NCBI GenBank assembly: GCA_018985235.1
Contig: JADGIG010000008.1
Coordinates: forward strand, 44,581 to 64,580
Length of the DNA: 20,000 nt
Direction: 5' to 3'
Source: Sanchytrium tribonematis
Taxonomy: Eukaryota
The notes beneath the pieces are model-generated. The model saw only the letters and a program-made list of their open reading frames with translations, was not told the origin of the DNA and did not search any database. How positions within the stretch are numbered: position 1 is the first letter of the stretch; each line of letters opens with the position of its first letter. The position numbers and the translations under genes are program-made. This document shows, piece after piece, positions 1 through 20,000 of this stretch.

Positions 1-382
1 TACGGTATTTGGCTAATCCATCTTTAAGAATGTCATTTGAAGCTACTTCTAGTTTTTTGCTGAAACCGTGGGCAGCTGATAAGTCTTGAACGTTTACAAC
101 ATTTTGCAAATGGACACGTATTTTTTCAAATTCCAATCTGTCATTATCTCCCCAAACCAGCTTTGTGGTTTCTGAGCTTGTTAGTACTGTATACAAACAA
201 TGGGGAATACCATCGAATTTCCAAATTGGTATTAATAGTGCATGAGAGGCATTTCCTAACTGCATTAGTTCAATAAGGCCATTTTGGGTACCTTCTACAT
301 CCAAGGCAATATATCTATCATCCTTTAAAAATACTAAGTTATTTTCAATTTCATTTTCAGTAAAACAATACAATATTTTCAT
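1..382 (-). CDS. DEDD-family 3'-5' exonuclease domain protein (WRN-exo/EXD-like); partial, runs off the window start
   Basis: Not in the ORF track; translated by hand from the ATG at 382-380: MKILYCFTENEIENNLVFLKDDRYIALDVEGTQNGLIELMQLGNASHALLIPIWKFDGIPHCLYTVLTSSETTKLVWGDNDRLEFEK..., with no stop down to base 1. It has the ExoI motif IALDVE, followed by the LMQLG strand, the L..vL.s....K segment and an ExoII-like Asp typical of DNA_pol_A_exo1 domains. Confidence 0.75.
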   Translation of the reverse strand, partial: MKILYCFTENEIENNLVFLKDDRYIALDVEGTQNGLIELMQLGNASHALLIPIWKFDGIPHCLYTVLTSSETTKLVWGDNDRLEFEKIRVHLQNVVNVQDLSAAHGFSKKLEVASNDILKDGLAKYR

Positions 383-534
383 TAGTTTCAGAATTGATTA
401 TAAAATTTTAAAATATTACCACCATAATCCATGGAGCTTCGAATAATTACATAAATTTCTAAAAATTGCACTGGCGATTGGTTTTTTGCAGGAGTTTTTG
501 CCGATGCCAACTTGAAACGTAAATTTTGTAACCA

Positions 535-1158
535 ATGATTTCTAATAACAATTACGGTAGAGTAACAACGGAATGGGAAGACGCTTTGGTAAATCATGGA
601 ATTTTAGAAAGAAAAGAAGAGGTTCAATCAGAGGAAGAAATTACAACAGAAGATCCGTATGCTGGGCTAGAAAAGGACGATATCGATATTTTACTTGAAG
701 AATGTGGAGAACAAGAAGAGCAGATATTACAAAAGCTCAAACAAGAAAGAATTAAGGAAATGACGGCAAAATTAAATATTAAATTTGGAAGTGTCCACCA
801 CATCTCTCAGACTGAATACAAGGAAGAAGTCACAATTGCTAGTAAAACTGACATTGTCGTAGTTCTGTTGTTCGATGGTTCAGAAGACTCTCAGATTCTA
901 AATAGATTTCTTGATCGTGCCTCTGCGGAATTCGGTAATGTCAAATTTTGTGCTATTCCAGGTAAGACTGCAATCGCAAATTATCCAGCCAAAAATATTC
1001 CCACCATTCTAGTTTATGACAACGAATATCCGGTTTCTCAATTAATTAGAGTTGTCCCTGGTTTGAAAACTAACAACTATTCTGAATTTGCTAATTACCT
1101 TAAAGTTTATGCATCAATTAAAAGTTTAACTAAAAAGGATTCAGAAGAAAATGAGTAA
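535..1158 (+). CDS. PLP2: Phosducin-like protein (PhLP2/PDCL3 family; CCT co-chaperone), 207 aa
   Basis: N-terminal TEWEDALVNHGIL matches the family TEWNDILRxxGI motif. Also present are KFGSVHHISQTEYKEEVT and NYPAKNIPTILVY in a thioredoxin-like fold. Confidence 0.88.
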   Translation: MISNNNYGRVTTEWEDALVNHGILERKEEVQSEEEITTEDPYAGLEKDDIDILLEECGEQEEQILQKLKQERIKEMTAKLNIKFGSVHHISQTEYKEEVTIASKTDIVVVLLFDGSEDSQILNRFLDRASAEFGNVKFCAIPGKTAIANYPAKNIPTILVYDNEYPVSQLIRVVPGLKTNNYSEFANYLKVYASIKSLTKKDSEENE

Positions 1159-1204
1159 TTTTTCTATTAATAAATTTTGTTTAAGAATTTTTTTGAAACT
1201 TTCA

Positions 1205-2113
1205 ATGAACAACAATAGATTGAGGACTTTTGTTGTCTTAAGAAATTTGAAAATATTTATATCCTCGAAATACTTTGGACGAATAGTTTTTGTGGTCAGT
1301 CTCGTCCTGGTCGCTAAAAAATTTAAGCCTGCGATATACAATTTTATTAATACAAAGATAATCAATCCTATTGTACTACTTGGATACCCAGCTTTTTACA
1401 AGGATGTCAATGAATCTCTTGAAAAAAGTAAACCAGAATTTGTTGATCTAGTCCCAAATGCCATGAGAACTTCATTTCGAAAAATATTGGGAATTGCTGA
1501 TTCTGGTAACACTGGCAATCAGTTGTGGTGGGATAGAATGATGAGTAATATTTTGTCCAATCTAGATCAGTACGTCATACAAATTGAAGATCAGCTCAAG
1601 GATGAGGTCAGTAAAACATTGAACGACTCCAAAGAGAATATCACCCAAGCCGTAATACGCGGGGCACAAAGTTATTTGCATTTAAACATTGACCATGTCA
1701 ATGCCATTAATTATGTACACTGTGCAACATGGAAGGAATGGATCAGAATAACTGCTGAGGATTTACTACAAGCTATTTTGATTGAAGTAAACCTGGAAAT
1801 TCACGAGCAAACATTGAGAATAATAAGCGAGATGAAGATGAAATTACCATCTTGGTTACCGCAACAATTTACTTCGATTCTTCCCGGTGAGCTTGTTTCC
1901 CCTCCAGCATATATTCCAAATAACATAATTGAACGGATTTGGAAATGGATTCAGGAACTTGAAGTTTCAATATTAAAGCAAATCCATGAGCTAATAGAAA
2001 ACGAAGTTGATGGGACGGAGAAAAGACTTTGCCAAATTACTGAAAAAAGACTCCGCGAATCGATGCAATTAAAATTAGGATTTACCGGGATCAATATGTT
2101 ACAGCCACTGTAG
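1205..2113 (+). CDS. Hypothetical, largely helical protein with a basic N-terminus and one predicted TM/anchor segment
   Basis: Long open frame (1151..2113) in an AT-rich background. The ATG at 1205 is preferred because the ATG at 1151 overlaps the end of PLP2. The hydrophobic stretch YFGRIVFVVSLVLVA follows an Arg/Lys-rich leader. No family recognised. Confidence 0.65.
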   Translation: MNNNRLRTFVVLRNLKIFISSKYFGRIVFVVSLVLVAKKFKPAIYNFINTKIINPIVLLGYPAFYKDVNESLEKSKPEFVDLVPNAMRTSFRKILGIADSGNTGNQLWWDRMMSNILSNLDQYVIQIEDQLKDEVSKTLNDSKENITQAVIRGAQSYLHLNIDHVNAINYVHCATWKEWIRITAEDLLQAILIEVNLEIHEQTLRIISEMKMKLPSWLPQQFTSILPGELVSPPAYIPNNIIERIWKWIQELEVSILKQIHELIENEVDGTEKRLCQITEKRLRESMQLKLGFTGINMLQPL

Positions 2114-2177: not shown

Positions 2178-5100
2178 ATGAGTAAACTCCCCTTGTGTCT
2201 CACAATGGATGATGTTGAATCTTTTAAACGAATTTCTCCATCACAAAGAGGCTACATAATCTGCGCAACTGCACTTATTCCTGTTGCAATTTTGTTTCCG
2301 AAACAGAACTTATATACAGCTTTGTCGGGTGTGACAGGCTTAATCATAATTCTTGCTACCGTTCTAGGGTCAATTTGGTCGATTCATTTTAAAAAGTTTA
2401 TGTGGTATCAAGATGACAATAATGGCAAATTTTGCTTTATGCAACCCAGGCTACATCGCGGACAAGCAGATATCGTCCAAATTCAAGATCAAATTTTGGA
2501 ATTTCAAAAGATGAAATTTAGGTTTGACAATGGCAAATTACAGCGTATAGTTCCTCGGCTAGAATTTTCTGTGGATGAACTGGTTAGCCACAAAGGTATC
2601 ACTGACGCTAGCAATTTGATTGAAAAATTTGGCGAAAATCATTTTCAAATTCCCGTCCCGACCTTCATTGAATTGTTTAAAGATCATTTGGTGAAGCCTT
2701 TTTTTCTATTTCAAATATTTTGCGTTACCCTTTGGATGTTTGACGAAATGTGGTATTATTCACTTTTTACTTTAGTTATGCTATTTGTTTTCGAGGCGAC
2801 GGTTGTCATGCAAAGACTACGCACATTAAATGAATTCCATCAAATGCAACACCCACCTTTTGATGTTTTTTGCTATAGAAGCAAAAAATGGACTAAAGTA
2901 TCCACTAGAAAATTAGTTCCAGGAGATGTTATATCCATCGGCACTTCCCAAGATATCAAGGTAGAACAACAGGCTAGTATTCGTAACCCAGTCAAACAAG
3001 TTGTTACAATTGAAACATTAGTTCCTTGTGATGCCATTCTTTTAAAGCATTCTTGTGTAGTTAACGAAGCTATTTTAAGTGGGGAATCGACTCCTGTTTT
3101 AAAGGAATCAATATTGATTAGAAATGGACAAGATCTTATCAACAACAATTCGAAATTGCACATGATATACGGTGGTACGCAGGTATTGCAAATTTCGGAA
3201 CAAACTGGCGACTTCAACACTGGTTTTAATATACCGAATGCACCTGACAATGGCGTTGTAGCGCAAGTTTTGGTAACTGGATTTAACACCACTCAGGGTG
3301 AATTAGTTAGAACAATGGTTTTTTCAAGTGAACCTGTTTCTGCGAATTCAAAAGAGGCATTTGTTTTCATTTTATTTCTATTGATTTTCGCGATCACAGC
3401 CGCGCTTTATGTTTGGCATGTAGGAAGTCAAGAACCCACAAGGGATAAGTGGAAGCTTTTTTTGAATTGTGTGATGATTGTTACTAGTTGTGTACCCCCT
3501 GAACTTCCTATGGAACTGTCGTTGGCCGTCAACACTTCATTAATGAGTTTGGCTAGACTCGCCATATTTAGTACCGAACCTTTCAGAATACCATTTGCAG
3601 GGAGAGTCGACGTTTGCTGCTTCGATAAAACCGGAACCTTGACCGAGGAAAAATTGCAAGTGGAAGGAATAGTTATCGAGGATAATCTTGTAACTAAAAC
3701 AAGCGAAATTGACGATTCGACCAAAATAGCCCTTTCAACAGCTCATTCGTTGGTTAAATTAGAAGAAAAGAACGAGATCGTGGGCGATTCGATGGAAAAA
3801 GCTGTTCAAGAATGGCTTGGATTCGATCTTGACAAAGATTTTATTAAATGCTCGGACAGAATTCAAGTTTTAAGAAGATTCCCGTTCTCTTCAGCTTTGG
3901 CAAGAATGGCTACTTTTTGCAGACAAAGTGATGGCGCCTACTTGACAAGTGTAAAAGGTGCACCTGAAAGACTTCGTGAACTTTTTGTTGATATTCCGGA
4001 AAATTATGATGATGTTTTTCAAACTTATGCGCAACAAGGTGGCAGAGTGATTGCAATAGGATTCAAAAAAGAGTATCGAAAATTCAGCTCCAAAGAAATC
4101 AAAGATTTGGAGCTTTCAACCATAGAAAAGGGTCTTACATTCTGCGGGTTTTTGGTATTAAAATCGCCCTTAAAAAAAGATGCTCTTGAAACAATCATTG
4201 AACTTAAGCAATCTTCTCACCATGTCGTTATGATTACAGGAGACAACTCTTTGACAGCTTGCCATGTGGCGAAACAACTTCAAATCTGTGACAAGAGTAT
4301 TGTCTTAATAACCGAAAGAGGTGGAAAATTAATAATAGAGGATGAAGACAAAAAACTGTACAATGATTTTAGTGACATTAACAGATATAAGCATAACATA
4401 TGTGTTACTGGCAAAGGCTTCGACTTAGTGCTAAAGTCTTCAATTGCGGAAGATTCCACATGGATTGCCAAAGTTGATGTTTGGGCCAGAGTCAGTCCAG
4501 ATCAAAAAGAATTTATAATCACACAGCTAAAAGAGCTAGGACTTTTTACACTAATGGCAGGAGATGGCACCAATGATGTGGGAGCATTAAAACAAGCTCA
4601 TGTTGGTGTTGCTTTACTTAATGGAACAGAGGAGGATCTTGACAAAATCAACAAAATTGCTAGAATTCAGAGATTGAAGCAAGTTTGGGAGAAACAGTCA
4701 GAAATTGCGAAGCGATTTGGTCAACCTAGTCCTCCGCAACCTCCTGAACTTAAGAGATATCTTGAAGAAAAAAATGAGAAAAATGTAAGCAAAACTCTCG
4801 CCAATCGGGAAAAACCCACAACGGTGGAAGAAAAACGCCAACACGCAATGCAAAATATGCTTGCATCTCTAGAAAGTGTTGACGATGATGAAGTGCCTGT
4901 GTTGAAATTTGGAGATGCTTCTATTGCAGCACCGTTCACAAGCAAACTATCTCAGGTTAAAGCAATTGCTCACATTATAAGGCAAGGTAGATGTACACTG
5001 GTAACAACTATTCAGATGTATAAAATTTTAGCTCTTAATTGTCTCATATCGGCCTACTCTATGTCAGTTCTTTATCTACAAGGAATTAAATGGGGAGATT

Positions 5101-5703
5101 GGCAAATGACAATTCAAGGTATTTTACTAAGCATTTGCTTCCTTTGCATCAGTAAAGGTAAGCCTTTAGATAAGCTGTCCAGAGAAAGACCCCAAGGAAA
5201 TATCTTTAATTGGTATGTATTATTAAGTGTGTTAGGACAAACTTTAATTCATGGAATCTGCTTTTATCAAGTTACTGCACAGGTACATGCAATTGAAGGG
5301 GAGCTTGAATTCGATTTTGAAAATAAGAAAAAATTTGAACCCTCTCTGCTCAATACTTGTATATATCTTCTTTCAATGTCAATGCAAGTCAGCACATTCT
5401 GGGTTAATTACATAGGTCGTCCATTTCGAGAAGATATTAGAGAAAACTCGTTACTGTATAGAGGGCTGTTAGCTGGAATTGGTGTAGCTTTTGCTGGAGT
5501 TTTAGAAATATTTTCAGACTTTAATAATTTCTTGCAACTAGTTCCTCTCTTTGATGTAATTTTGATTCATTTAGCTGAAAAATTATCTGGGTGCTGTAAT
5601 GTTGTTTGATTTTTTTGGTTCTTTCATTTGGGAAAAGTTGTGTTTTAAATTCTTTTCTGATTCTGGTAGAAACAAGATTAACGAGTTTTTAGATTTGGAA
5701 TAA
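2178..5703 (+). CDS. SPF1: P5A-type ATPase (Spf1/ATP13A1, ER transmembrane-helix dislocase); exons 2178-5555 and 5575-5703, about 1168 aa (start may be the ATG at 2205)
   Basis: Motifs PPELPMEL (P5A TM4), DKTGTLT (phosphorylation site), SGES, MITGDN, GDGTNDVGALKQA and GDASIAAPFTSK. Removing the 19-nt intron gives the tail LKNYLGAVMLFDFFGSFIWEKLCFKFFSDSGRNKINEFLDLE*, which supplies the final TM helix and resembles the yeast Spf1 LLLDFFGSWGVEHFFKFFF segment. Confidence 0.96.
5556..5574 (+). other. 19-nt spliceosomal intron in SPF1 (GTAATTTTGATTCATTTAG), phase 0
   Basis: GT...AG boundaries. Excision restores the conserved last TM segment and gives a stop at 5701-5703. Confidence 0.9.
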
Positions 5704-5713
5704 ATTTTTCATC

Positions 5714-5851
5714 ATGAAACGATGGCATGATTTTAAAGAAACGTACGAGTTGATAACATCAAAATCCCAAGTGGAGGCCAGAAAAAAGTTCCAATTTCAT
5801 ACTGAGGTTGACTTGACAACATTTATTGATTCTTTAAATAAACCTGAATAA
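5714..5851 (+). CDS. Candidate 45-aa microprotein MKRWHDFKETYELITSKSQVEARKKFQFHTEVDLTTFIDSLNKPE
   Basis: ATG-to-TAA frame covering 138 of the 160 bp between the SPF1 and CSC1 stops. It leaves gaps of 10 and 12 bp, like the other tight gaps in the window. Too short for the ORF track. Confidence 0.45.
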   Translation: MKRWHDFKETYELITSKSQVEARKKFQFHTEVDLTTFIDSLNKPE

Positions 5852-5863
5852 TTTATTAAAAAT

Positions 5864-8446
5864 TTAGCCATTACGGTTGTGAAAGCTTAAAACGGAATTT
5901 GATTCTGAGTGTAATCTTGACCTACCTGCGTACGAAGCTTGTGATGAATTTGATCCATGGAGACTATTGGAAGAAATCATATGTCCGGGCCCAGATGATG
6001 CTTGAGGTGATCTGCTTTGATATTGCGAAGTTTGGTGATTTTGCTGTTGCAATAAATAGGAGCTTTGTAGACTTGATGAAGATCCCATCTGCCTCGGACC
6101 AGAAGAAGGTTGTAGTACTCTACTTTGGTAAGGTGGAACTGGGTAATTTTGCTGTTGAAACGGTATTGGTCCTGGTTGGGCTCTTCCTTGATTTGTTGGA
6201 TTTTGATAATTTGGTTGCCGCAATGACTGCGAACTTCCATAATGCTGCTCTTTATATTTCTGCATTAGGGGGAAATCTTCTGATACCGTATTTGCGCCAT
6301 TAAATGTCGTTGTTGACTGAGACCAATCATTCGCCGCCATTCCGATAGTTCCTTTTAAATAAGGCAGCAACAATGGTTGCATTTTCGGATCGAGCATCGC
6401 GGCCTCCGGCTCGCTAAAATATAATGGATGTAGAATTTGAAACTTTTCTTCTTCACGGGCCTCGTCTTTTGGAATCTTAAATTTTCGCTTTAAAGTTCTT
6501 TTTTGAATCAAAAAGCCTATAAAAGTAGCAATAAACAAACTCATTAGAAGGTAACTTTGAATATTAGCATCGTAAACTCTGAAAAGCAAAATCAAAATTG
6601 CTTGACTAAATAACAAAGCTGCATATATTCTGTTAAATACTAGGGGCCAAAAACTGCCAGCTGTATCGCTATCGGAGCTGAAGACATAAATGACTTGATA
6701 TTTGTAAACAACATAAGAAATTCCAAAGAAGAACAATCCGAATACCAAAATAATAGGATGTATAGTAGCATATGCAATAGCTAGAAAAAACATAAAAAGA
6801 TTACTTGTCAGAACGACGTCATGTCTAAATTTTGGGGGCTTCAACAATTCTTTGTATTCTCTTGCAGTTGGATTTGACCATCGCATTTTGATTTTTAACA
6901 TTATAAAAGGTAAAAATCTGGCGAGATCGATGGGGATGGAGCCCGGTCCATTCAAAGTTAACCAGTTGATCCAATAAATTCCCTTGTTCGCAACATTATA
7001 AGCAATGCTGATTGTGAACTTATTAAAAGTCTCGTACGCAGCTTGAGCTGAGGTTACAGTTTTAAACTGAGTCAAAGACCAGATTGACCCACTCAACGTG
7101 AATAATAAATAATATCCAATTATGAAAAATGAAAATAACTTTCTCATCGTTGCTTTTTGGATTTCTGTGTTGGTTGGTTCAGCTTGTAAATTTGCAATAA
7201 AATAAAAGATGTCTGGAATGAAGATCAATAGTAATTTCAAAAGTAGCGGTGTCAAGACACTTTGAATAAATGCCGCAAATTTCGGATAATCTGAAACTAA
7301 TGTTGCTATAAAAGGCAAGTAGCCACTTAGGACATGGAGGTCCGTAAGAGGAGCGAGAAAAATAATTGGAATCATCCAAAAACATACTAAACCTAGTGTC
7401 AATAGTCTACCTATAAGTCTTCTTGACTTTATCTCGGCAGGCACCATTTTGACATTATTCCACACAATATCGTTTACATCAACTGCATGGTATGGAGTCC
7501 ATTCACTACTTCTAAGAATACTTTTAGAGCTTGCTTCATAAGCATCCTCAGGATCTCTAAATATTCCAAATCCCGAAGGCAAGTATTGGATACTTGTAAG
7601 TCCTTTTTGCTGCTGATCAAAGATCGTTTGCTTCAGATTAGTTAAATCGTCAATCATACGTATTGCCACGTCTGGATTGTCTGGATTTTCGTGGCAGAAC
7701 TTCTCTAACTTGCTCAAATTCGCATTATACTTTGCAAATAGTTTAACTAGCTCAGATGGGTCAGAAAGTAATATACCAGTACATTGAATGTTATGCTTTT
7801 TGTAAACGTGCCTATCAATGACAAATGGCTTATTTTTGTTTGAAATCCCAGTATAGAAAACTAACTTTGAGGTGTTGTAAAAGTTTGTCACATATCTTTG
7901 TCTAACTGTTATGTAATAGTGCCACATATTGACGGTAAAGTAGAATACAAGACCTGTTATGAAATACATTATTGCAGTATGTGCATAGAGGTAATCAGGA
8001 CTCCCGACTAATGTAAGAAGTGAAATATTGTTTAAATCCGCATTAACACCAACCCTTTTTCCTGAAAGATGAATAGGAATGAGCACGATTAAACATACAG
8101 GTGTCAAAATCAAGAACAATTTGAGAAACATTCGCAAGACTTTGATTGTTAAAAGCCCATCCACCCCAGATGTATTAACAATAATATCATCATCTAATCT
8201 GATGAGTTCATAAATCCATTTAAATGTAAAAGACAACTTTGGCGGATGCTTTTCTTCTTTTAAAACGTAGTAATTAGGTTGATAAATCTTCTTATTCTTC
8301 GGTCGCAATAATGTAAATGCCAATATGGCTGCTATTCCGGTTATACTAGCAAAAAGGAATTGAATGAACACACCAAACAAATCATTTGCTTGACTGTTAG
8401 AATCCTGTAAAGAATTCAAAGTGTCGTCAATATTTTGACTAGACAT
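5864..8446 (-). CDS. CSC1/OSCA/TMEM63 (RSN1/PHM7-like) osmo/mechanosensitive channel family protein, 860 aa, with a Q/S/P-rich C-terminal tail
   Basis: N-terminal TM followed by LRPKNKKIYQP, SGVDGLL..LR, IVLIPIH, DIVWNN, a multi-TM RSN1_7TM region, PIILVFGLFFFGISYVVYKYQVIYVF and DTAGSFWPLVFNR. Confidence 0.92.
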   Translation of the reverse strand: MSSQNIDDTLNSLQDSNSQANDLFGVFIQFLFASITGIAAILAFTLLRPKNKKIYQPNYYVLKEEKHPPKLSFTFKWIYELIRLDDDIIVNTSGVDGLLTIKVLRMFLKLFLILTPVCLIVLIPIHLSGKRVGVNADLNNISLLTLVGSPDYLYAHTAIMYFITGLVFYFTVNMWHYYITVRQRYVTNFYNTSKLVFYTGISNKNKPFVIDRHVYKKHNIQCTGILLSDPSELVKLFAKYNANLSKLEKFCHENPDNPDVAIRMIDDLTNLKQTIFDQQQKGLTSIQYLPSGFGIFRDPEDAYEASSKSILRSSEWTPYHAVDVNDIVWNNVKMVPAEIKSRRLIGRLLTLGLVCFWMIPIIFLAPLTDLHVLSGYLPFIATLVSDYPKFAAFIQSVLTPLLLKLLLIFIPDIFYFIANLQAEPTNTEIQKATMRKLFSFFIIGYYLLFTLSGSIWSLTQFKTVTSAQAAYETFNKFTISIAYNVANKGIYWINWLTLNGPGSIPIDLARFLPFIMLKIKMRWSNPTAREYKELLKPPKFRHDVVLTSNLFMFFLAIAYATIHPIILVFGLFFFGISYVVYKYQVIYVFSSDSDTAGSFWPLVFNRIYAALLFSQAILILLFRVYDANIQSYLLMSLFIATFIGFLIQKRTLKRKFKIPKDEAREEEKFQILHPLYFSEPEAAMLDPKMQPLLLPYLKGTIGMAANDWSQSTTTFNGANTVSEDFPLMQKYKEQHYGSSQSLRQPNYQNPTNQGRAQPGPIPFQQQNYPVPPYQSRVLQPSSGPRQMGSSSSLQSSYLLQQQNHQTSQYQSRSPQASSGPGHMISSNSLHGSNSSQASYAGRSRLHSESNSVLSFHNRNG

Positions 8447-8621
8447 GTGTTTGAGGGGTTGGAAATGAAGGTCACTAGATCCTTTTTTGCCAGGATTGAA
8501 ACACGACGATCAATTCTCATGAGATGTACGTTACGCATCCATTAACGATGTCTCAAATATTTCTGCTCTTTATCATTCATCACAATAACAAAAATAGCGG
8601 AGAAAATTAGTGTAACTTGAA

Positions 8622-9668
8622 ATGTTGTGTGACCACTGTCAACAATGTAGAGCGATTTTATTGCGACCAAAGACGCAGCAGAAAATATGCAAAGAATGTT
8701 TCTTTACTGTCTTTGAACTTGAAGTTCACCAAACTATTGTTGAGAATAATTTGTTTAAATCTGGCGAGAAAGTTGCAATCGGGGCCTCAGGAGGAAAAGA
8801 TTCAGTAGTTCTAGCGTACATTTTGAAACTTTTAAATGAAAGGTATAATTACGGGCTAGATTTGTATATGTTAAGCATAGATGAAGGGATTTCGGGATAT
8901 AGAGATGATAGTTTGAAAGCTGTTGTTAGAAATCACAAACAATATCAAATTCCATTAAAAATATTAAGTTATGAGGAGCTTTATGGATGGACAATGGATA
9001 AAATTGTAGATAAAATTGGCCACTCGAATAATTGTTCATATTGTGGCGTTTTTCGTCGTCAGGCTCTCGACCGAGGCAGCTCGATGCTAGAAGTTGACCA
9101 GGTTGTTACAGGGCACAATGCTGATGATCTAGCCGAAACAATTCTGATGAATATTCTAAGAGGTGATATTAGTCGCTTAAGAAGATGCACAGCAATTAGT
9201 ATTGAAATGGAAGGTTACGTAAAAAGATCAAAACCATTTAAGTATACTTACGAAAAGGAAATTGTTCTTTATGCGTATTTCAAGAAATTGGATTACTTTT
9301 CCACTGAATGTACACATTCACCTGGCGCGTTTCGCGGAACTGCGAGGATCTATTTAAAAGAATTGGAAAAAATAAGACCTAGAGTTATTTTGGATATTAT
9401 ATCGAGTGGTGAGAAATTCCAAACACATGACAATAATCACCCTGCAGACCTCAAATCTTGCTCAAGATGTGGTTATATGTCTTCCCAAGACATCTGCAAG
9501 GCATGCATATTGCTAGAGGGGTTAAACAAAGGAATGCCAAAATTAGGCGTTTACAAAACTGATAAGATTCGCAAAAAGTATGATATTTCAGTAGATGACG
9601 AAAGTAATAATCTAGAAAAATTTAGCAAGAATCAGAAAAGCAGGTCAAACAATTCACTTGATTTTTAA
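8622..9668 (+). CDS. NCS6: Cytoplasmic tRNA 2-thiolation protein 1 (Ncs6/Ctu1), 348 aa
   Basis: N-terminal CxxC...CxxC, PP-loop [59 protein letters not shown], and a C-terminal [16 protein letters not shown] zinc finger. Confidence 0.97.
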
Positions 9669-9704
9669 ATTTAAAATAGTTTCTTTGTTGTCAAACTTCA
9701 GATT

Positions 9705-12700
9705 ATGAACAGACGAACAAGCAGTGAGATTGGCCTTCATGAAATAAAAAAGATGCATTATTCTAATGCTTTAAAGCAAGATACTATTGTTCATAGGATA
9801 AACACAATGCCTCAAAATAATGAAATTTCTTTATCTTCTAAAAGCAATAGTCTCACAACTGCGCTTGGGTTGGCATTTAATAGATTAGAAGTGAAAAGAT
9901 CGAATATTGATTTGAGCAAATCAGAGTCCAAAGTAGAAGCACAACAAGATCAACATGTCAATCAGATTTTTCTTAAAACAAGTGAAAAATTAAATGGGGA
10001 CTTGGCTACGAGCTACACGTCAATGGAGTCCCCTTCTATGAGCTTGGATGACAATAGTCTTCCCCAACTCTCACCTAGAAAAAAAGAGCAGCACGACCTT
10101 GATGATCATTCATATCAAATCGAAAAAGAGAACAACTCTTTTTTAAGGTCAGTTTTATTATTTTGGAACGGTCAGGTAGGGGGAGTCAAGAAACTCTCTC
10201 AATTTTTTGCAGCTTTTTCCAAATTGCAATTAATCTTTGCAGAAATTGTGATAGCATTAGCATTTGCTATTCCTTATTCGATGCTCGATGGAAATGATTT
10301 ACTGGTACTGCTCATTGTAAATTGTATTGTTATTTTTGCTGTTTTGCAAATGAAAAAGAAGTTCGCCATGAAATATCACGATACTTGGAGCATTTTTACG
10401 CTTATAATACATCAGATGCTGTTAATGTACTTAAATCACGTCTTTGCGATAAATGAGAACCAAGTTTCAACAAATTTATTTCTAATTTTCATCAGTAGCT
10501 CATTGACTTGTGTTTCCTCTCTGGCTACTAAAACGATCATTGTTTTTAATATATTGGCAAAAGCGTTATTATTCTTGGTAAGCCGCAAAAACTTAGATTG
10601 GAAAATATTTTCTTTGACGTTATTTGTGGACTTAGCTGGTTGTTTTGTCGCGTTGCTAAACAGTTTAAAGATAGTCCAAGTATTTCAAAAGAAAGGCTCT
10701 GGTATAGTTGATTTTCAGGCTGTAATTGATAAAACAAGGAAAGAGGTCGAACTGCTCGATAAAATGGCGAATTCGCTTCTTCCTGATTATGTTTGGCATG
10801 AATTGAAAGAGGGCAAACATGGTGCATTTACAGGGAATATAAACAAGGGATTGCGATATGAATATCCAAAAGTTTCAATCTTGTTTGCTGATGTTGTCGG
10901 GTTCACTGCCCTTAGTTCCAAAATAGATAAGGATGAATTACTTAAAGTTCTTAATCACGTATTCACAAGATTTGATAAAATTGCTGAGGTCCACGATATG
11001 GAAAAAATTAAAACTGTGGGAGACTGCTATGTAGTGGTGGGTGGCGTAACAACTGCAAGCGAAGATTGTGTAGCCAGGTGCGCTTTGATGTCATTGAAAA
11101 TGGTTGAGGCAATGAAAGAAATTCAACAGAGCTCAATTATTCCTGAAGGTGTGACTGTAGCTCTGAGGATTGGATCGCACGTAGGATCAGCAACTGGGGG
11201 ACTGATAGGTGATACGAAAATGCTTTTTGACATTTGGTCTAAGGATGTTAGTCTAGCCAGTTTGATGGAGCAGTCTGGGGCGCCAAATAGAGTTCATATC
11301 TCTCAAGATTTTTATAATGAAATTTCCGACATAGCCATTGTTGATGCAGCGCAAGAGGTGATATTCTCTGAGATCAAAGTCAAATCCTACTTTTTGGAAG
11401 GCATCAATGTTAACAGAGAATTTTTCAAACTTCCATTTATAGTTAAAAGCTGCAAGATTTCTAGCAATTACAAACACAGCTTTTATCGGCCTGCTAAAAT
11501 GTCAAATAAGAACCAGATTTCGTTGCTTCAAAAAACTCCGCATATCTTGCACAAGTTTCTAATGCATTTTGAAGAGTTGCAAATTGAGAATGAATTTATT
11601 AGAAAACACCAGAAAGACAATCTACATAGCGTACTGTTGGGATTATTTTTAAATCTAATAATTGGCGTAGTTTTTGGGGTTTTAGGAATATACTTTAGTA
11701 GAAGTTCAACTATTGCAATTTTGATTGCATTTAATGCCATAGTTCATCTATCCTGTACTGCCATTATGCTAAGCATTAAATTTCGTGGTGGCTCGTCGTT
11801 CGAAAATCTTAGCATTCTTGAAAAACAGTTTTACAAAATAGGATCCAAAGCTCAAACTTTAGATCAGGATGTTTTAATACTTACAACAATGTTTAGTACC
11901 TATTTGCTTGTGCTGGGAAGCTCGGTCGTCTTTCAGAGTGATTTGCCATTTATTCATGGATCTTTTTACATTTGTATAATTTCAGGATACATATTTCAAG
12001 GCTTAAAGTTTCCTTATTTTGTTATATTTTTTCTCTTGTCAACCATTACCTATGGATATTTTTTAAGCTATCAAACTCTGACTACTTGCGATGATTTCAG
12101 AAGCATATTTTTTTATTTTGGCATAACTATATGTCTTTTTAACAATTATTCTCGAAATTTTTGTAGCAGAAATTTTTTTAGTGTTGATACAAATCAAAGA
12201 GAAGAGTTGTTCGTTTTACAAGATCAACACCTAAAAACTAATAAGACTGTTTTGAAATTGCTGCCCAAGCACGTTATAGACATACTGAAGTCCGGAACCA
12301 CAGATTTCAGTGAGAGTTTTCCTGAATGTGCCGTAATCTTTTGCGAAATTATGGGCTTATCAAAATACTCCAATAATCCAGATCTTTTGAATGAGATTAT
12401 CAGTCGAGTAGACAAAAGTTTAATTTTTTTTCCAGGAATTGACAAAGTTAAAACCATTTACTCGATATACATGGCTGCAACCGGAATAACACCAGAATCC
12501 AGGTCCACGAAAGAACATTTGAAATCTGCTCTTGATTTCGCTTTGTCATTGAAAAAACATATCAAAGTATTCCAAGAAAAAGGAATCACGCTAAATTTTC
12601 GAGTTGGAATTTCTATTGGGCCCATCATTGCGGGCCTTGTTGGCAAATCTAAGTTGACTTATGATATTTGGGGCGATACAGTGAATGTTTCTTCGCGCAT

Positions 12701-12866
12701 GGAATCTACAGCTGATCCAGGGACCATTCAAGTAACTCAGCGTGTTTTTCATTTGTTTGAAGACACTTTTAAGTTTGAAGACAGAGGGCCGATATATGTG
12801 AAAGGCAAGGGGACAATGAACACCTACCTCTTGCTAGGCAAAAAAAGAAGAAATCAAAGTAAATGA
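9705..12866 (+). CDS. Class III transmembrane adenylyl cyclase with animal-type architecture (N-term, ~6TM, C1, ~6TM, C2), 1053 aa
   Basis: C1 motifs: SILFADVVGFT, KIKTVGDCY, FDIWSKDVSLASLMEQSG. C2 motifs: KVKTIYSIYMAATG, GPIIAGLVG, YDIWGDTVNVSSRMEST. A hydrophobic helix cluster precedes each cyclase domain. Confidence 0.92.
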   Translation: MNRRTSSEIGLHEIKKMHYSNALKQDTIVHRINTMPQNNEISLSSKSNSLTTALGLAFNRLEVKRSNIDLSKSESKVEAQQDQHVNQIFLKTSEKLNGDLATSYTSMESPSMSLDDNSLPQLSPRKKEQHDLDDHSYQIEKENNSFLRSVLLFWNGQVGGVKKLSQFFAAFSKLQLIFAEIVIALAFAIPYSMLDGNDLLVLLIVNCIVIFAVLQMKKKFAMKYHDTWSIFTLIIHQMLLMYLNHVFAINENQVSTNLFLIFISSSLTCVSSLATKTIIVFNILAKALLFLVSRKNLDWKIFSLTLFVDLAGCFVALLNSLKIVQVFQKKGSGIVDFQAVIDKTRKEVELLDKMANSLLPDYVWHELKEGKHGAFTGNINKGLRYEYPKVSILFADVVGFTALSSKIDKDELLKVLNHVFTRFDKIAEVHDMEKIKTVGDCYVVVGGVTTASEDCVARCALMSLKMVEAMKEIQQSSIIPEGVTVALRIGSHVGSATGGLIGDTKMLFDIWSKDVSLASLMEQSGAPNRVHISQDFYNEISDIAIVDAAQEVIFSEIKVKSYFLEGINVNREFFKLPFIVKSCKISSNYKHSFYRPAKMSNKNQISLLQKTPHILHKFLMHFEELQIENEFIRKHQKDNLHSVLLGLFLNLIIGVVFGVLGIYFSRSSTIAILIAFNAIVHLSCTAIMLSIKFRGGSSFENLSILEKQFYKIGSKAQTLDQDVLILTTMFSTYLLVLGSSVVFQSDLPFIHGSFYICIISGYIFQGLKFPYFVIFFLLSTITYGYFLSYQTLTTCDDFRSIFFYFGITICLFNNYSRNFCSRNFFSVDTNQREELFVLQDQHLKTNKTVLKLLPKHVIDILKSGTTDFSESFPECAVIFCEIMGLSKYSNNPDLLNEIISRVDKSLIFFPGIDKVKTIYSIYMAATGITPESRSTKEHLKSALDFALSLKKHIKVFQEKGITLNFRVGISIGPIIAGLVGKSKLTYDIWGDTVNVSSRMESTADPGTIQVTQRVFHLFEDTFKFEDRGPIYVKGKGTMNTYLLLGKKRRNQSK

Positions 12867-12877
12867 ATCGTAACCGT

Positions 12878-13219
12878 TTATTTTCTATCTTCCACCATTA
12901 TGACATGGTATCCAAATTTTGTTTTTAAAGGCTCTCTATTGAATTGTGGGGCATTGGAAGTAGAGACTGACAAGGAAAAGGCTAGATCCTGGAAGTCACC
13001 TATCATTTGTCCACGCGACTGCCACCCTAAGGAGCCACCTTGTCTAGCTTTATCAATGCTCATTTCTTTGGCAACATTTTCAAATGATTCCCCTGCATCA
13101 AGCCTTTTGATTGCATCAATTGCTTGTCCGTGCTTTTCCGTGAGTATGTGCCTAACCTTGATTGCATTGGCTGGCTTCTGTTTATCCGAATTGTTACTAC
13201 TTTGCTTCTTTTTGGCCAT
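12878..13219 (-). CDS. PIN4: Parvulin-type peptidyl-prolyl isomerase Par14/PIN4, 113 aa
   Basis: Basic N-terminus, [22 protein letters not shown] and [12 protein letters not shown]. No WW domain, so it is Par14-type rather than Pin1/Ess1. Confidence 0.95.
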
Positions 13220-13250
13220 GAAAAAATGTGTTCTCCTATGCCCAAAATAT

Positions 13251-13832
13251 TTATTTTAACAGAGCTCGACGCAATTCAAACTTAGGCTGCACATATGGGA
13301 AGAAGGGGCTCATTTCACAGTCTAGCTGTGATACTTTTGGATTGATTAATTCAGTGGCATTTGGTAGGGGACGAAATTTTTTTAGATCTATTGTCTGGCT
13401 TGTGGGTAATTCCGCGAAACATTCTGGATGAGTAAATGGATTTATAACATGTATATAATTTCTATTTTTGAATCGGTGTCTTATTTTACAGTCAAAATCG
13501 GTTGCTTCGTTTGTTAATTTAATAAAATGATTTTTATAGATTTGCTTTTCTTCAAATGGCAAATCATCACGAAATGCTCCAAAGTGATGCACAATATCTT
13601 TTTTGAAAATCACAAATCCTTCTTCCTTGGCATGTAAAGTGAATGTTCTTCCTCGAAAGACGTTGTCCCCACAATGCCATTTCGTTCCTCTCTGAGTTAT
13701 AATGATTTCTCCTGGCTTAACATACTCCATACTAAACTTTTTGATACCCAAATATTTTGGCAGGGCTTTTCGGTTATTTTGAGTACTACCACTTGATTTT
13801 TTTGTTGCAAACTTGATTCCTGACAAGAACAT
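13251..13832 (-). CDS. MRPL27: Mitochondrial ribosomal protein bL27m with C-terminal extension, 193 aa
   Basis: [41 protein letters not shown] and [12 protein letters not shown] match the L27 signature, preceded by a very short leader. Confidence 0.9.
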
Positions 13833-14027
13833 GAAATTAGGAGAATTTTAAATTTCAGTACATTTTGAACTTGAGAAATCTAAATAAATTATTCAATCAG
13901 CCTAGTTAAAAACTTGGCGGAAACCTGGATCTCTGTTTTCAGGATATTTTAGATTTTTCACCTAATTTGTGTACAACATTCAAGGATTGATTCAATCAAG
14001 TACGAGACGTACGGAGATTTTTTTAAA

Positions 14028-16289
14028 ATGTCATCGCAACACGAAATTGAAGAAAATTATATCTTTGAGGAGCTCAGCAAAAAATCCATGCTTTCAGCAA
14101 ATCCTCAAATGGTCCATAAATTAGCTCAATTATATGGTAAAAAAATGATGAATAATCTTGCAAAGAAAAAATCTGGAGACCCCGAAAATGATATGGATTT
14201 AATGACTTTCTTTTCTACACTGATGGAAATGACCATAAAGAAAGATGATCCGCCCGAAGAGGGAGATTATTCTGGAAGTGACTGTCTAAGTGAAGTTAGT
14301 AACAATTCTTACAATGACCGTACTCGCTATTTCAGTGTATCTGATCATACTTCAATTGCACATTTAATAGTTGCAGAAGAAATGAGACTAAAACAGAGTA
14401 TGCTTCGTGAAAAGGAAGAATTTAAAAAACAGAGACAGGCTCAAAAGGACAAACAAAAGCTCAAGCGAGAATTGGAGGAGACGGAGAAGCTGAAATTAAA
14501 AGAGCTAGAGATAATTGAAAAGAAACGCCAGGAAGATGAACGAAAGCGTGCGAAAGAAGAACAGGAAGCGTTTGAAAGCCGAAAATTATTATGTCGCAAA
14601 AAAATGGAAACAAATGCTAGAAAATGGTTTTACCACTACTCGGATACATCAAAGCCTCGCTTTATTGATTTAGTACGACTTTCGGAAGATTTCGACGAGA
14701 TTCCAATATCTAAATTGTATGAATTGGAATACAAATGGGACCCTTTAAAATCTAATCAAATTGACAGCGAAGATGTGTCTGAATGTATTGGCTCGCATTG
14801 TTTTGAACTTAATAGGTACGAGTCGTATGAGCCCAAAGAGGGGAGACAAGAAACTCCACTTCATGCTAGTATTAGAGGCGCTGCAAAATGCAATGATTGG
14901 ACAATTGTGAAATTTTTACTCGATAAAGATATTAATTATAATATCCCTGATGAAGATGGCATGATCCCTTTGCATTTGAGCATTCACATGGAGAGCCCTG
15001 AGGAGATTATGCAAAAAATGATAAATAATTCAGGTGCCCTGATTGATGAAAAAGACATAAAAACTGGCTCCACAGCCCTCCATATAGCTGTAGAAAAAGG
15101 TAATGCTAGATGCGTTAAAATGCTGCTAAATTCCAAGGCTAGGATTAATATTTTAGATATAAATGGAAATACTGCCGAATCAATTGCTCAAAATAATTTC
15201 GATAAAAAATGTATTACTGGAATTGACAAAACTGACTGGTTTAAACTAGAGATTTCATCATTGCCTGCAAAAACTGGAAGTTCTCCCGCTATAATGGCTT
15301 GTTTGTCTCTGCTCAAAAAATCACGGGAACTTTTAGAACATGAAAGAATAGAAGCTATGCGCAAAAAGGAAGAAGTTAAGAAAGAAGAACTCGAAAAAAA
15401 ACGATTACAAGAAATAAAAGACGAAGAGGCGAGAAAAAAAGCTGCTCAAAAAGTGCGTAAAAATGAATTAACCTTTGATTTAACACCGGCCTTTTTAAAT
15501 TCAGAACCAAAAGTACAAACGACGCCAAGCAAGAAAAAGAAGAGCAAGAAGAAAGGGAAGAAGAAGAACATCGAAGATGCTGTTTCCATCAATTCTTCTG
15601 CTGTCGATGAAACTGTGTCCCCGCCTCCCTCTGTTCAACAATCAGTGGCTTCTACACCTGTGCTTGACTTTGAAAGATCTAGATCAGTATCTAGTGAAAG
15701 CTTAGTTACTAAAACTCCACTCAAAAGTAGGGTTGACGACGTTTCTCCTCCGCCAGGATTTGTGTACACCGCGGCTGATCTGGAAAGAGAATTGCTTCAA
15801 GGATTTTCTGTTCCAAAAGAAATTGGCGAAGTTAAAGATGAACTTGCAACAGACAACACATCGACTATTGAAGATTTTTTGTCTAGAACTGCTATTCGTA
15901 AAAGGGCTGAGGATGTGGTGCTGACAGAACCAGTCTCTGAAAATTTTGCTCGCGTACCACCTGTCGTGAAAAGCAATTTGAAAAGAAAAACTAATTTACC
16001 TAACGGAAACAGTATAAACTTGCAAACAAAGCCAAAATTATCTGGAAAAATCTCAGATGCTGCCCCAGGGTTTGAGCCTGTAAACAAAAAGACTGAAGAG
16101 GAAGCCTTGAAGCCAATTGGATCTATTCTAAAGTCGATTTTAACAGAATCTGATCAGGACGAAATAATTATGAAAAGCGCACCTACCAAAAAGGCGGAGA
16201 CTTTTTCATTGTTTAATGACACCAAACCTTTATTTACTTCCACGTCATTATGGGCTCCATCGCAAAACAGCGAGTGGTATTCAAAATAA
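14028..16289 (+). CDS. Ankyrin-repeat protein with flanking charged coiled coils, a Lys-rich NLS-like patch and a disordered C-terminus, 753 aa
   Basis: Ankyrin repeats ETPLHASI, GMIPLHLSI, GSTALHIAVEKGNARCVKMLL and GNTAESIA; E/K/R-rich helices; KKKKSKKKGKKK. Confidence 0.85.
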   Translation: MSSQHEIEENYIFEELSKKSMLSANPQMVHKLAQLYGKKMMNNLAKKKSGDPENDMDLMTFFSTLMEMTIKKDDPPEEGDYSGSDCLSEVSNNSYNDRTRYFSVSDHTSIAHLIVAEEMRLKQSMLREKEEFKKQRQAQKDKQKLKRELEETEKLKLKELEIIEKKRQEDERKRAKEEQEAFESRKLLCRKKMETNARKWFYHYSDTSKPRFIDLVRLSEDFDEIPISKLYELEYKWDPLKSNQIDSEDVSECIGSHCFELNRYESYEPKEGRQETPLHASIRGAAKCNDWTIVKFLLDKDINYNIPDEDGMIPLHLSIHMESPEEIMQKMINNSGALIDEKDIKTGSTALHIAVEKGNARCVKMLLNSKARINILDINGNTAESIAQNNFDKKCITGIDKTDWFKLEISSLPAKTGSSPAIMACLSLLKKSRELLEHERIEAMRKKEEVKKEELEKKRLQEIKDEEARKKAAQKVRKNELTFDLTPAFLNSEPKVQTTPSKKKKSKKKGKKKNIEDAVSINSSAVDETVSPPPSVQQSVASTPVLDFERSRSVSSESLVTKTPLKSRVDDVSPPPGFVYTAADLERELLQGFSVPKEIGEVKDELATDNTSTIEDFLSRTAIRKRAEDVVLTEPVSENFARVPPVVKSNLKRKTNLPNGNSINLQTKPKLSGKISDAAPGFEPVNKKTEEEALKPIGSILKSILTESDQDEIIMKSAPTKKAETFSLFNDTKPLFTSTSLWAPSQNSEWYSK

Positions 16290-16334
16290 ATAAATTCTAT
16301 AAAACTCGTAAAATTCTCCTTTTTTCATAATTTT

Positions 16335-17361
16335 ATGGACAGCACACTTCGATCTTTAGTTGAAAGTAATTTCAAATGGATATTTTGCGGAGGTAAAGGT
16401 GGTGTTGGAAAAACGACATCCTCTTGCTCGCTAGCCACAGTCTTAGCACTTAGCGGCAAACAGGTTTTACTAATTTCAACAGATCCAGCTCATAACTTAA
16501 GTGACGCATTCAATCAAAAGTTTGGCCAAAATCCTTTGCCTGTAAATGGATTCGATAAGCTACCGCCTATTGAAGGCTTGAATACAAACGGGAAAAAAGG
16601 AAATTTGTTTTGCATGGAAATTGATCCACAGAGTACCATGAATGATATGATCAAGGAAGAAGGCACAAGCATGTTGAATGATCTAGGCATGAACATTCCT
16701 GTAAATCATATTCACTTAGGGTGTTGATGAGGCGATGGGATTTGCAGAAGTTATGAAGTTGGTAAAAGGAATGTCATACGACGTTGTTGTTTTCGATACG
16801 GCTCCAACTGGTCACACTTTAAGATTTCTTTCATTTCCTAGTGTCATGGACAAAGCTTTAGATAAAATTAGAGAACTTGGAGGTAAATTTGGAAGCATAA
16901 TGACACAAATGTACACAATGATGGGAGCTTCTACAACACAAGAGCAGATGTTTTCTAAAATGGCAGAGACTCAAGCAACTATCAAGCAAGTTCATGCTGA
17001 GTTTACCAACCCTGAAAAATGCACGTTTGTTTGCGTTTGTATTGCTGAATTTTTGAGTTTGTATGAGACCGAGAGAATGATACAAGAATTAATGGGATAT
17101 GATATCGATACACACAATATCATTGTTAATCAGCTAATTTTTGATAGTCCTGATGTCAAAAATGTTAAGTTGTTGAGAGTGCGTCGAAATATGCAGCAAA
17201 AATACTTGTCGCAAATCCATGAATTATATGAAGATTTTCATGTTGTAACTATGCCTCTTTTGACAAAAGAAGTGAGAGGTGTTGATAGAATTCGTCTTTT
17301 TGGTTCTTGGCTTTTAAAAGGTTATGATCCTAAAGAAGATATTGATTCCGATGAAGAATAG
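16335..17361 (+). CDS. GET3: ATPase GET3/ASNA1/TRC40 (tail-anchored protein targeting); exons 16335-16700 and 16720-17361, 335 aa
   Basis: Motifs [34 protein letters not shown] and [17 protein letters not shown]. Splicing joins MNIP to GVDEAMGF and recreates the conserved IPG(I/V)DEAM motif. Confidence 0.97.
16701..16719 (+). other. 19-nt spliceosomal intron in GET3 (GTAAATCATATTCACTTAG), phase 0
   Basis: GT...AG boundaries. Excision fuses ORFs 16335..16727 and 16735..17361 and restores [10 protein letters not shown] with no extra or missing residue. Confidence 0.95.
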
Positions 17362-17375
17362 GTAAATAAATTTAC

Positions 17376-19767
17376 TTAATCTATCTCAGGCTCTTCGTTT
17401 TCCTTTTTATCAACTTGTTCCAAAAATTGCAGCCTTCGCTTTCGAAGTTCCTCTGCACTCACATTTTGTTGTACAGGTATAGTTTGTTCAATGTTTTCTA
17501 TTAAAACAGGATCCACCTCAGAATTTTGAAGCGTTTCCTCGATTGGGGAATTTTGTATTGGCTCAGGAGTTGGCATTTGCTCATTTTCTTGCAATCTTTG
17601 ACGCTGTTGTTCTCTCATCTGTTCTAAAAGCGAATTAAGCCTTGCGTTGGATTGCACTTCAACGACAGGCACATCGTTAGTAGGCGCTCGCAGCTGAACC
17701 TGATTTCTCCTTCTAATATAGAAAAGGTATCCACTTACAAGTATTAAAGCAAAAAATATTAAATTGTCCATCCCAGCGGAGGAAGACCCAAAAAACATAT
17801 TTTCTAAAGTTGAAAACCCATCATTGTAATTATTACGCTTCCATGTTGGTGTGCGCATTTCATCAATTTCCCAATCAATCTCCTCAGTTTTGTGCTGCTT
17901 AGAAATGGGCAATTCCTCTTCCACTACTTCTTCAGACTCTTCAGAATTGTTTTGAAAGTATTTAAGAAAGTCATTCCAACTCCATCGCAGACGAAGTTTC
18001 AAATTTGATAATGAGACAACAAGCCATGTGTCCTTGTTGTATTCGTATGCAAGGTCATAAAACCTCATTGCCATATTAAAATCCTGCTTGACACCTATGC
18101 CATTTTCATACATATACCCAATATTCCATGCTGCGTAGGAACTCCGGCTTTCGGATGCCGCTTTATAATATTCGAAGGCTTGCTGCCTATCTTCTTCAAT
18201 GCCATTTCCGTTATAATGATAATCACCTGCTTTAATTCTCGCATCCACATTACCCTGATTTGCAGCGCGGTGAAACGAAAGCAGAGCTAAATTTTTCAAG
18301 TTCTGGGTGATATTTGATTGCTTGATCTCTTCTTTATCAATTAGATATGCAAGGTTCACCTGCGCAAGCTCAATTCCCATTTCAGACGCCAATAAGTAAT
18401 TGATTAAGGCATTTTCTAAATTGTCTTTGGTTAAAGAATCGTAGGCTTTGACTGTATACGGAAAAAACCATTCATACCCTGTTTCGGCAACTTTCTTGAA
18501 CAACTAAATTAAAATTAATTACACTAACTGCTTGTTTGCAATCGGCACTGACACCATATCCATTTTGTACCATGTCGCCAAGTAAAAATGAAGCCTGAAC
18601 ATTGCCAAGATGTGACGCAATATTAAGGTAATTACTCGCACTGATGTAGTCCTTATTTTCCTTATGATGCTTCCCAAGTCTTGTGAGACCAAACGCGTCT
18701 TGTCGTTCAGCGGCCTTTCCATACATTTCTAAGGCTTTCTTCATGTTTGGCGATGTACTAAGTCCATATTCATACATATAACCTAAACCTGAAAATGCCA
18801 TACCTTCTCCGATATCTGCTCCCTTGGTAAACCATGAAAAAGCTTGTTCGTTATTCTTCTCTACAAATTCACCTCTGAGGTACATTCTGCCCAACATTGC
18901 AGCACTTTTACCTGCAAAAAGTCTATCTTTTCGTCTCATATAAGCATCTTCTTCATCTTCGGAGTCTTCTGGCTTTTCTACTGCTGTTGCAGCCTTTTTG
19001 AAATACATAAAAGCAATTTGATAATTTTGCTTGAAGTTTTGTAAACCTTGATAAAAAACTTGACCAAGCAAAAATTGAGACGATATATCGCCTGATTCGG
19101 CAAGCATTTTTGAATAATCAATAATATCATCCTCGGATATCCCAGAACTATCGTCTCCAAATATTCTGTCATTTGGTTTATAATGTGAGATGTGTCCATA
19201 AATTCCTCCATCTGCCGCTTCTAAATGTACTGGTAGTGGAGGATATAAAGTTCCTAATGGCGGTCCATCAACACGATGTTTAACAACAATTTTAGCAGCT
19301 GCTTTGTAATATTGTAAAGATTTCGAACAAGATTCCTTCACGCCTATTCCATGTGAATATCTATACCCCATTGACATAAGTGAGGGTAGGTATCTATCTC
19401 TGGAAGACAAGGCAAGGTGAATTAAAGATTGCTGAATAGAATTTTCTTCACTTATTATTTTTGAAGATAAGAAAACGCCCTTAATGAAATGCCCATAAGG
19501 ATGGCCATCTTTTGCCAAAATAGTTGAAATCTCGTAAACCTTGTTGTAGTCATGTTTTGTATATAAATAGTAATCCAAAACTGTTTCCAAGCTTTTGACA
19601 TGTTGGTAATGATCATAATTTTGCTTTAATTCCTCCAGTGCCAGCTTAGGATTGACCGTCAGTAAATCTTTATTCTTGAGATATTCTTGTTCTGATAATT
19701 CTTTGGAGTCCTGTACAGGTACCAGATCAGTCGCAAATATCAAAATACTGAACAAAATAATTTTCAT
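17376..19767 (-). CDS. HRD3: ERAD adaptor Hrd3/SEL1L (signal peptide, Sel1-like repeats, C-terminal TM, cytosolic tail); exons 19767-18523 and 18503-17376, 790 aa
   Basis: Signal peptide MKIILFSILIFA; many Sel1 repeats (MGYRYSHGIGVKESCSKSLQYY, LGRMYLRGEFVEKN, AANQGNVDARIKAGDYHYNG, IGYMYENGIGVKQDFNMAMRFYD); TM NLIFFALILVSGYLFYI followed by RRR. The splice yields CKQAVS-LFKKVAETG. Confidence 0.93.
18504..18522 (-). other. 19-nt spliceosomal intron in HRD3 (GTAATTAATTTTAATTTAG), phase 0
   Basis: GT...AG on the minus strand. Excision fuses ORFs 18472..19767 and 17376..18503 and gives the conserved C..A..LFK.VAE.G Sel1 motif. Confidence 0.93.
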
Positions 19768-19949
19768 TGGTTTCAGAAATTAAATTTTTATTAGACTTGA
19801 AATAAGTCTTTCAAAAACTTGATGGTGTCATCTGGAGATCGAACAGTATATCCTTTAACTCTTTTATCAGAGTAGATTTCGTAATCATTTCCGCCCTTTT
19901 CGGTTTTGTCACCAAAAAAATAAATTTCCTTAAATCCTTCTTTCTCAAC

Positions 19950-20000
19950 ATGACGCAAGCAGTAAGTTTTATCCCATCTAAATGAAACAAGTATACCCTG
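19950..20000 (+). CDS. Possible 5' end of the next gene (ATG ACG CAA GCA, then a GTAAGT splice donor)
   Basis: The ATG follows a pyrimidine-rich leader (TAAATTTCCTTAAATCCTTCTTTCTCAAC) 182 bp from the HRD3 start, a spacing like the other divergent pairs. A canonical GTAAGT sits at 19962. The unspliced frame stops after 11 codons. Confidence 0.3.

Follow-up and report, generated by a model that had tools for sequence, protein, structure and literature searches.

Spliceosomal introns of uniform and very small size are known from a few lineages, measuring 18-21 nucleotides (nt) in nucleomorphs, 16-17 nt in mikrocytids and 15-16 nt in heterotrichs (PMC10245619). In Stentor and Blepharisma, the 15-nt introns have a conserved A at position 10, that is, at -6 (PMC9505925, PMC13685798). 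Median lengths of 22-27 nt are found in myxobolids, with similarly short introns in dicyemids (PMC13644364), and Trichomonas has introns down to 23 nt (PMC12316389). Among Holomycota, the introns of Encephalitozoon cuniculi are around 25 nt long and two introns of Rozella S23 around 30 nt (PMC6349667). Here, we analyze a stretch of 20,000 nt from Sanchytrium tribonematis (contig JADGIG010000008.1, positions 44,581 to 64,580 of the forward strand; hereafter the window, whose own coordinates we use), in which the genes SPF1, GET3, HRD3 and SEC53 are each interrupted by an insert of exactly 19 nt. A previous, sequence-only reading had proposed three of these inserts as introns, with nucleomorphs and heterotrichs as the known cases; both precedents stand, but mikrocytids (16-17 nt), myxobolids (median 22 nt) and dicyemids had been omitted. 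We conclude that the four inserts are very probably spliceosomal introns of U2 type, belonging to a sanchytrid fungus and reduced almost to the smallest size that a spliceosome can handle.

Results

Four genes are interrupted by 19-nt inserts

The three inserts first proposed as introns are present, are 19 nt long, start with GT and end with AG. They lie in SPF1, encoding a P5A ATPase (5556..5574, plus strand), in GET3 (16701..16719, plus strand) and in HRD3/SEL1L (18504..18522, minus strand), all in phase 0. A fourth intron, beyond the range covered by the sequence-only reading, is found in the phosphomannomutase gene SEC53 (19978..19996, minus strand), in phase 2 and with the same 3' motif. 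The SPF1 insert separates a long exon (2178..5555), recognized by its open reading frame (ORF), the Pfam domains E1-E2_ATPase and Hydrolase, and homologues, from a short one (5575..5703) that encodes 42 amino acids (aa) and a stop, and corresponds to a conserved hydrophobic C-terminal segment. The exons of GET3 (16335..16700 and 16720..17361) match positions 2-88 and 106-303 of the ArsA_ATPase profile. Those of HRD3 (18523..19767 and 17376..18503) are both supported by ORF and Pfam, the first also by homologues and the second by alignment. The window holds the last exon of SEC53 (19791..19977), a gene that continues past its end.

All four inserts have GT...AG termini and share GTA at positions 1-3, TT at 11-12, A at 14 and TTAG at 16-19. 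Their 3' ends fit the motif TT[A/C]A[C/T]TTAG, with an A at -6 that is branch-like as judged from sequence only, and their donors are GTAATT, GTAAAT, GTAATT and GTATAC. They are AT-richer (0.74-0.89) than their flanks (0.57-0.70). The pattern GTA...TNAYNYAG has 5 matches at length 19 for 0.35 expected (at most 2 in 200 dinucleotide shuffles), and 0-3 matches at every other length from 14 to 40. A strict pattern has 4 matches for 0.02 expected, and none at lengths 14-18 or 20-26. Both patterns were composed after the introns were known, which makes these counts post hoc. The nine-base 3' motif was derived from the first three introns and also fits that of SEC53, on the sense strand and at the break in homology; the 5' end was loosened from GTAA to GTA after the SEC53 case.

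Removal of the inserts restores the encoded proteins

The unspliced frames stop soon past the junction, after 17 codons in SPF1, 8 in GET3 and 16 in HRD3. Once spliced, GET3 encodes 335 aa and aligns without gaps across the junction with 10 full-length homologues and with the relative P0122; the protein of a metagenomic relative (P0123, 85% identical) is encoded by a single uninterrupted ORF and is also gap-free at the junction. Against P0361 (64% identical, 781 aa, one ORF), spliced HRD3 shows neither insertion nor deletion at the junction, and spliced SPF1 regains its 42-aa hydrophobic C-terminal exon, which can be aligned to the C-terminal ends of SPF1 from other fungi. The earlier claim that every junction precisely restores a conserved protein motif thus holds for GET3 and HRD3, with their indel-free alignments, whereas the tail of SPF1 matches more loosely than a strict motif would. 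Among nearby GT/GC-AG pairs of size 3n+1, it is the 19-nt pair that keeps the flanking conserved residues. In SEC53, the match to the Pfam PMM domain begins at residue 9, just past the intron, and the unspliced frame has R where the three PDB alignments shown all have G, which splicing gives back.

The genes exceed those of close relatives by 19 nt rather than by 1 nt, so that single-base errors fail to explain the frameshifts. Private in-frame insertions of 6-7 aa, relative to close relatives, were not found in SPF1, NCS6, GET3 or HRD3. GET3 does include a 15-aa insertion (around 16560-16605, plus strand), common to P0123 and absent in other fungi; we rejected it as an intron, because it is coding and shared with P0123.

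Intron sites in relatives

The SPF1 proteins of three relatives, all predicted by ORF calling, P0242/P0512, P0243 (from Amoeboradix gromovi) and P0244, have V (GTN) at the codon of the window's intron, with 3, 2 and 30 residues, respectively, from there to the stop. Among the next 57 homologues (the first 60 of 119 were used), V occurs at this codon in 2, and at least 39 further residues follow in 56; the remaining one, P0257, is a far longer protein whose alignment is probably at fault. The tail of P0244 is identical at 13 of 31 positions to the window's wrong-frame read-through. When all codons are allowed for the read-through of P0244, an offset of 19 lets it encode 14 of the first 20 residues of the window's exon 2, and no other offset between 4 and 45 gives more than 6; none of 2000 shuffles reaches 14 (maximum 12). 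At offset 19 the stretch starts with GT, can end with AG and has a forced A at position 14. By this back-translation, the P0244 genome, which was separately assembled, very likely has a 19-nt SPF1 intron with the same site and geometry.

The two mid-gene introns are distributed differently, that of GET3 being absent at the site from P0122 and P0123, and that of HRD3 from P0361. A single scan of metagenomic data, with GET3 exon 2 as the query, yielded 29 loci, some transcript-like, many near-duplicates and none a close relative over the full query; G[VI]DEAM was intact in 28 of them, and none had an intron at the site. On this distribution, the GET3 and HRD3 introns turn over within the clade, by gain or by loss. 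The longest contig is 15,291 bp for both P0122 and P0361, which suggests that the adjacency of GET3 and HRD3 is conserved in the relative carrying them.

Other breaks were seen in the same comparisons. Several other fungal GET3 loci (L006, L007 and L020-L029) are interrupted directly after an EVMK motif, apparently a widespread GET3 intron position that is lacking in the window's gene. In supplementary file 4 of PMC8371127 (rows 1135-1136), BBP/SF1 of A. gromovi appears as two ORFs that carry consecutive numbers and lie on the same contig. The GET3 records of A. gromovi and of two ENA relatives (P0125, P0122 and P0124) have N-terminal truncations at differing points. These split and truncated records are candidates for further hidden introns.

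Placement of the organism and its splicing machinery

A tree of SPF1 (18 rows, LG+G4) places the window in a clade with A. gromovi and the two metagenomic relatives P0512 and P0244 (100/100), which is grouped with five Blastocladiomycota (100/99), as expected from where Sanchytriomycota have been placed before (PMC8371127). Of the named homologues, that of A. gromovi has the highest identity for NCS6 (76%), GET3 exon 2 (87%) and the C-terminal region of SPF1 (85%), the next named fungi reaching at most 69%, 65% and 69%, respectively; several ENA proteins come close to A. gromovi in identity. The sequence-only reading had named sanchytrids as a candidate lineage, and the tree, together with the identity ranks for NCS6 and GET3, bears this out. 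Its view of an ordinary nuclear genome is likewise supported, by the bL27 gene (PF01016) and the Sel1-repeat HRD3 gene.

The annotation of A. gromovi includes, among the entries listed, PRP8, SF3B1, the small subunit of U2AF, BBP, U1-70K, SNRNP40, PRP22 and the RRM protein K12837, and U1-70K is also among the entries listed on the S. tribonematis sheet (PMC8371127). With these core components annotated in a relative, the lineage presumably possesses a working spliceosome, no loss being evident among the entries. We take K12837 to be the large subunit of U2AF. U1C (K11095) did not turn up among the entries searched, which carries no weight in a list of this extent.

Gene content and other motif matches in the window

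Around 13 genes, as counted from ORFs and Pfam, are packed very tightly into this eukaryotic window, with gaps of roughly 10-200 bp (gene starts being estimated). They encode a phosducin-like protein, SPF1, CSC1/RSN1, NCS6, a nucleotide cyclase, a parvulin, bL27, an ankyrin protein, GET3, HRD3 and SEC53. The two remaining ORFs (1130-2113, plus strand, and 2-397, minus strand) have no significant Pfam match; the second bears a DxE motif, which we take as reminiscent of a 3'-5' exonuclease. The cyclase (9675-12866, plus strand; 1063 aa) has two PF00211 stretches, each preceded by hydrophobic segments, a layout that resembles the architecture of membrane adenylyl cyclases. Searches of the window with Rfam and ARAGORN found nothing, including small nuclear RNAs and ribosomal RNAs.

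Intron density in this window is around 0.2 per kb of coding span. The intron-bearing genes occupy 2178-5703, 16335-17361, 17376-19767 and 19791-20000, and the other nine or so genes have no frameshifting introns. All four have roles in protein insertion, quality control or glycosylation at the endoplasmic reticulum (ER); this pattern was noticed post hoc, three of the four genes are neighbors, and it may be due to chance.

Some other matches to intron-like motifs were considered. A 19-nt match at minus 1580, antisense to a long ORF, is likely to have arisen by chance. The same is probably true of an 18-nt match (14286-14303, minus strand) that has GT-AG ends, TACTAAC and the same 3' motif and lies antisense within the ankyrin ORF. 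Chance is also the likely source of two further matches that we rejected, a 15-nt match at plus 2977, whose sequence is conserved as protein in P0512 and P0243, and a 25-nt match at plus 9591, which would disrupt an end of NCS6 that agrees with relatives. Further sense-strand matches occur at minus 6161 and minus 13448, and a 24-nt in-frame GT-AG segment is found at plus 1428, inside the ORF 1130-2113.

Discussion

Our case for spliceosomal introns is built on their GT-AG ends, the shared motif, the restoration of frames and the shared position in SPF1. One can then ask how introns of this size would be processed. The short GTA donor would be read by U1 and U6. Branch boxes have the consensus yUnAy, and U2 would pair with the similar box of these introns, bulging A14 as the branch point, with a lariat loop of 14 nt. 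Just three bases separate A14 from the AG, so that a polypyrimidine tract would not fit, and the AG is probably set by its distance from the branch point. Such branch-to-AG geometry would keep the length close to 19. A length of 19 is of the form 3n+1, so that an intron left in the mRNA puts the frame out and soon leads to a stop. Sanchytrids probably acquired their tiny introns independently of other lineages, under the same genome compaction that has narrowed the gaps between genes in the window.

A few points weigh against this picture. The window includes 4 nt of the exon upstream of the SEC53 intron, so that a single upstream residue is comparable there. The placement of the organism comes from one gene tree, in which chytrids, aphelids and rozellids are absent and the stem branch is long (1.15). 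In the read-through of P0242/P0512, intron positions 10-12 form a stop codon; this is incompatible with the U at position 12 that a 19-nt intron with its branch A at -6 should have, and motif or length may thus differ in this relative. Finally, the comparison of private insertions covered four of the 13 or so genes, and introns of 18 or 21 nt without stops could hide inside ORFs, in a sample that is small and favors frameshifting introns.

It is possible, though less likely than not, that the introns are spliceosomal and that 19 nt is the mode of a wider range (e.g., 17-25 nt, with some longer). The cases number only five, introns that preserve the frame more easily escape notice, the P0242 read-through misfits a 19-nt intron with A at -6, and nucleomorph introns span 18-21 nt. 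Yet, the length is exactly 19 nt in the four cases of the 20 kb window and in the one inferred in a measurable relative (P0244), and the strict motif is absent at 14-18 and 20-26 nt. A bolder proposal is that sanchytrids have a length-measuring spliceosome fixed at 19 nt genome-wide, with introns still gained at that size and an apparently ordinary set of U1, U2AF and BBP kept. The notion of continued gain comes from the absence of the GET3 and HRD3 introns in close relatives and from the uninterrupted GET3 site of 28 other loci. We regard this proposal as tentative and rather doubtful; if it holds, these would be the shortest introns in Fungi, perhaps in opisthokonts.

Spliceosomal introns might also be rarely or poorly spliced, with much of the mRNA retaining them, as for the short introns of microsporidia. 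The short introns of Encephalitozoon average less than 20% splicing (PMC6349667), and mikrocytid introns of 16 and 17 nt are spliced at 63% and 37% (PMC10245619). We think this unlikely here, because the introns cut GET3 and HRD3 mid-gene, and SEC53 ahead of conserved catalytic-domain sequence, which would call for substantial splicing, and because the sequences of the second exons remain conserved.

The two explanations that dispense with a spliceosome are very improbable. The first invokes errors of assembly or amplification, or pseudogene lesions, with coincidental GT-AG ends. Published sanchytrid genomes do derive from whole-genome-amplified cells, but the excess over close relatives is exactly 19 nt, a single motif recurs at four sites, and the downstream coding sequence is conserved in the shifted frame. 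Moreover, the same SPF1 codon is broken in separate assemblies of relatives, with P0244 fitting 19 nt, which argues against assembly errors. The second, just as improbable, is removal by Ire1 and a tRNA ligase, as in HAC1/XBP1. Introns of this type measure about 19-26 nt and have twin stem-loops with the cleavage motif CNG'CNGN at both junctions. The inserts are near this size, and all four genes belong to the ER or secretory pathway, a pattern that is post hoc; however, they have GT-AG ends and a branch-like box, their junction folds are neither stable nor shared (z-scores of 1.36, 0.15, 0.73 and -0.95), and inspection shows the CNG'CNGN loop motif to be missing at one or both junctions. U12-type introns, whose donor is extended to RTATCCTT and whose branch box is strong, can be dismissed, since none of the four donors has the extended sequence.

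Spliceosomal introns of 19 nt have consequences for gene annotation. The sequence-only reading anticipated that tools with a larger minimum intron would truncate or split such genes. Public records do read through the SPF1 intron (P0241, 1143 aa) or reduce GET3 to a 208-aa fragment (P0121), but a minimum intron length is not the stated method behind the published proteomes, for which ORFs were called on contigs by TransDecoder (PMC8371127). As sanchytrid proteomes made by ORF finding hold split or truncated proteins, gene counts, "lineage-specific" proteins and inferences of gene loss may need rechecking.

In the main text of the sanchytrid genome paper, the word intron occurs once, in the title of a reference (PMC8371127), and the portions available of five other articles (PMC10459994, PMC8476143, PMC10815200, PMC9730499, PMC6899921) contain nothing on sanchytrid introns. 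More generally, we found no description of these introns in the literature searched, whose scope stopped short of most subscription journals and of part of the PMC8371127 supplement. Fungal introns as short as these have probably not been reported before, and no class of introns in fungi or animals from the literature compared would be as small as 19 nt. With them, a fungal lineage would join the few in which introns below 22 nt originated independently, and the known fungal minimum would drop from the mid-20s to 19. The intron-rich Blastocladiomycota (B. emersonii has 19,375 introns in 10,031 genes) provide, alongside sanchytrids, a close comparison for studying changes in the spliceosome.

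Tiny introns are of a kind already known, to which the sanchytrid lineage would be a new addition. Size class, a narrow range in the few cases seen and a compact genome bring the window close to the chlorarachniophyte nucleomorph of Bigelowiella natans (18-21 nt; PMC10245619). Nucleomorph introns differ in belonging to a relic endosymbiont nucleus and in being dense (more than 800 in around 300 genes), whereas those of the window are sparse and lie in the main nucleus of a fungus. The likeness to Mikrocytos mackini (16-17 nt) is that of a parasite with few, uniform and sequence-conserved tiny introns (PMC10245619); sanchytrids parasitize algae (PMC8371127). In contrast with mikrocytids, the intron-bearing genes include a P-type ATPase and a phosphomannomutase, and A. 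gromovi keeps U1-70K, the small subunit of U2AF and BBP.

Microsporidia and Rozella, also parasites with GT-AG introns, are the closest holomycotan precedent (PMC6349667). Yet, the introns of E. cuniculi are longer, strongly 5'-biased and often placed straight after the ATG, whereas those of the window lie in the middle or towards the 3' end of their genes, and the window's organism stands beside Blastocladiomycota in the SPF1 tree. Myxobolids and dicyemids are opisthokont parasites as well, with a donor similarly reduced to GTa (PMC13644364). They are animals, however, and their introns are longer, span a broader range, and have a weak branch signal, at a distance from the AG that varies with intron length.

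The introns of heterotrich ciliates are alike in their GTA start, TAG end, AT-richness, A at -6 and low density. Those of the window are four bases longer, of size 3n+1 where heterotrich introns are mostly 3n, and have a clearer yUnAy-like box. The lineages being unrelated, we infer convergence, and the branch A at -6 that they have in common points to a shared geometric limit of the spliceosome.

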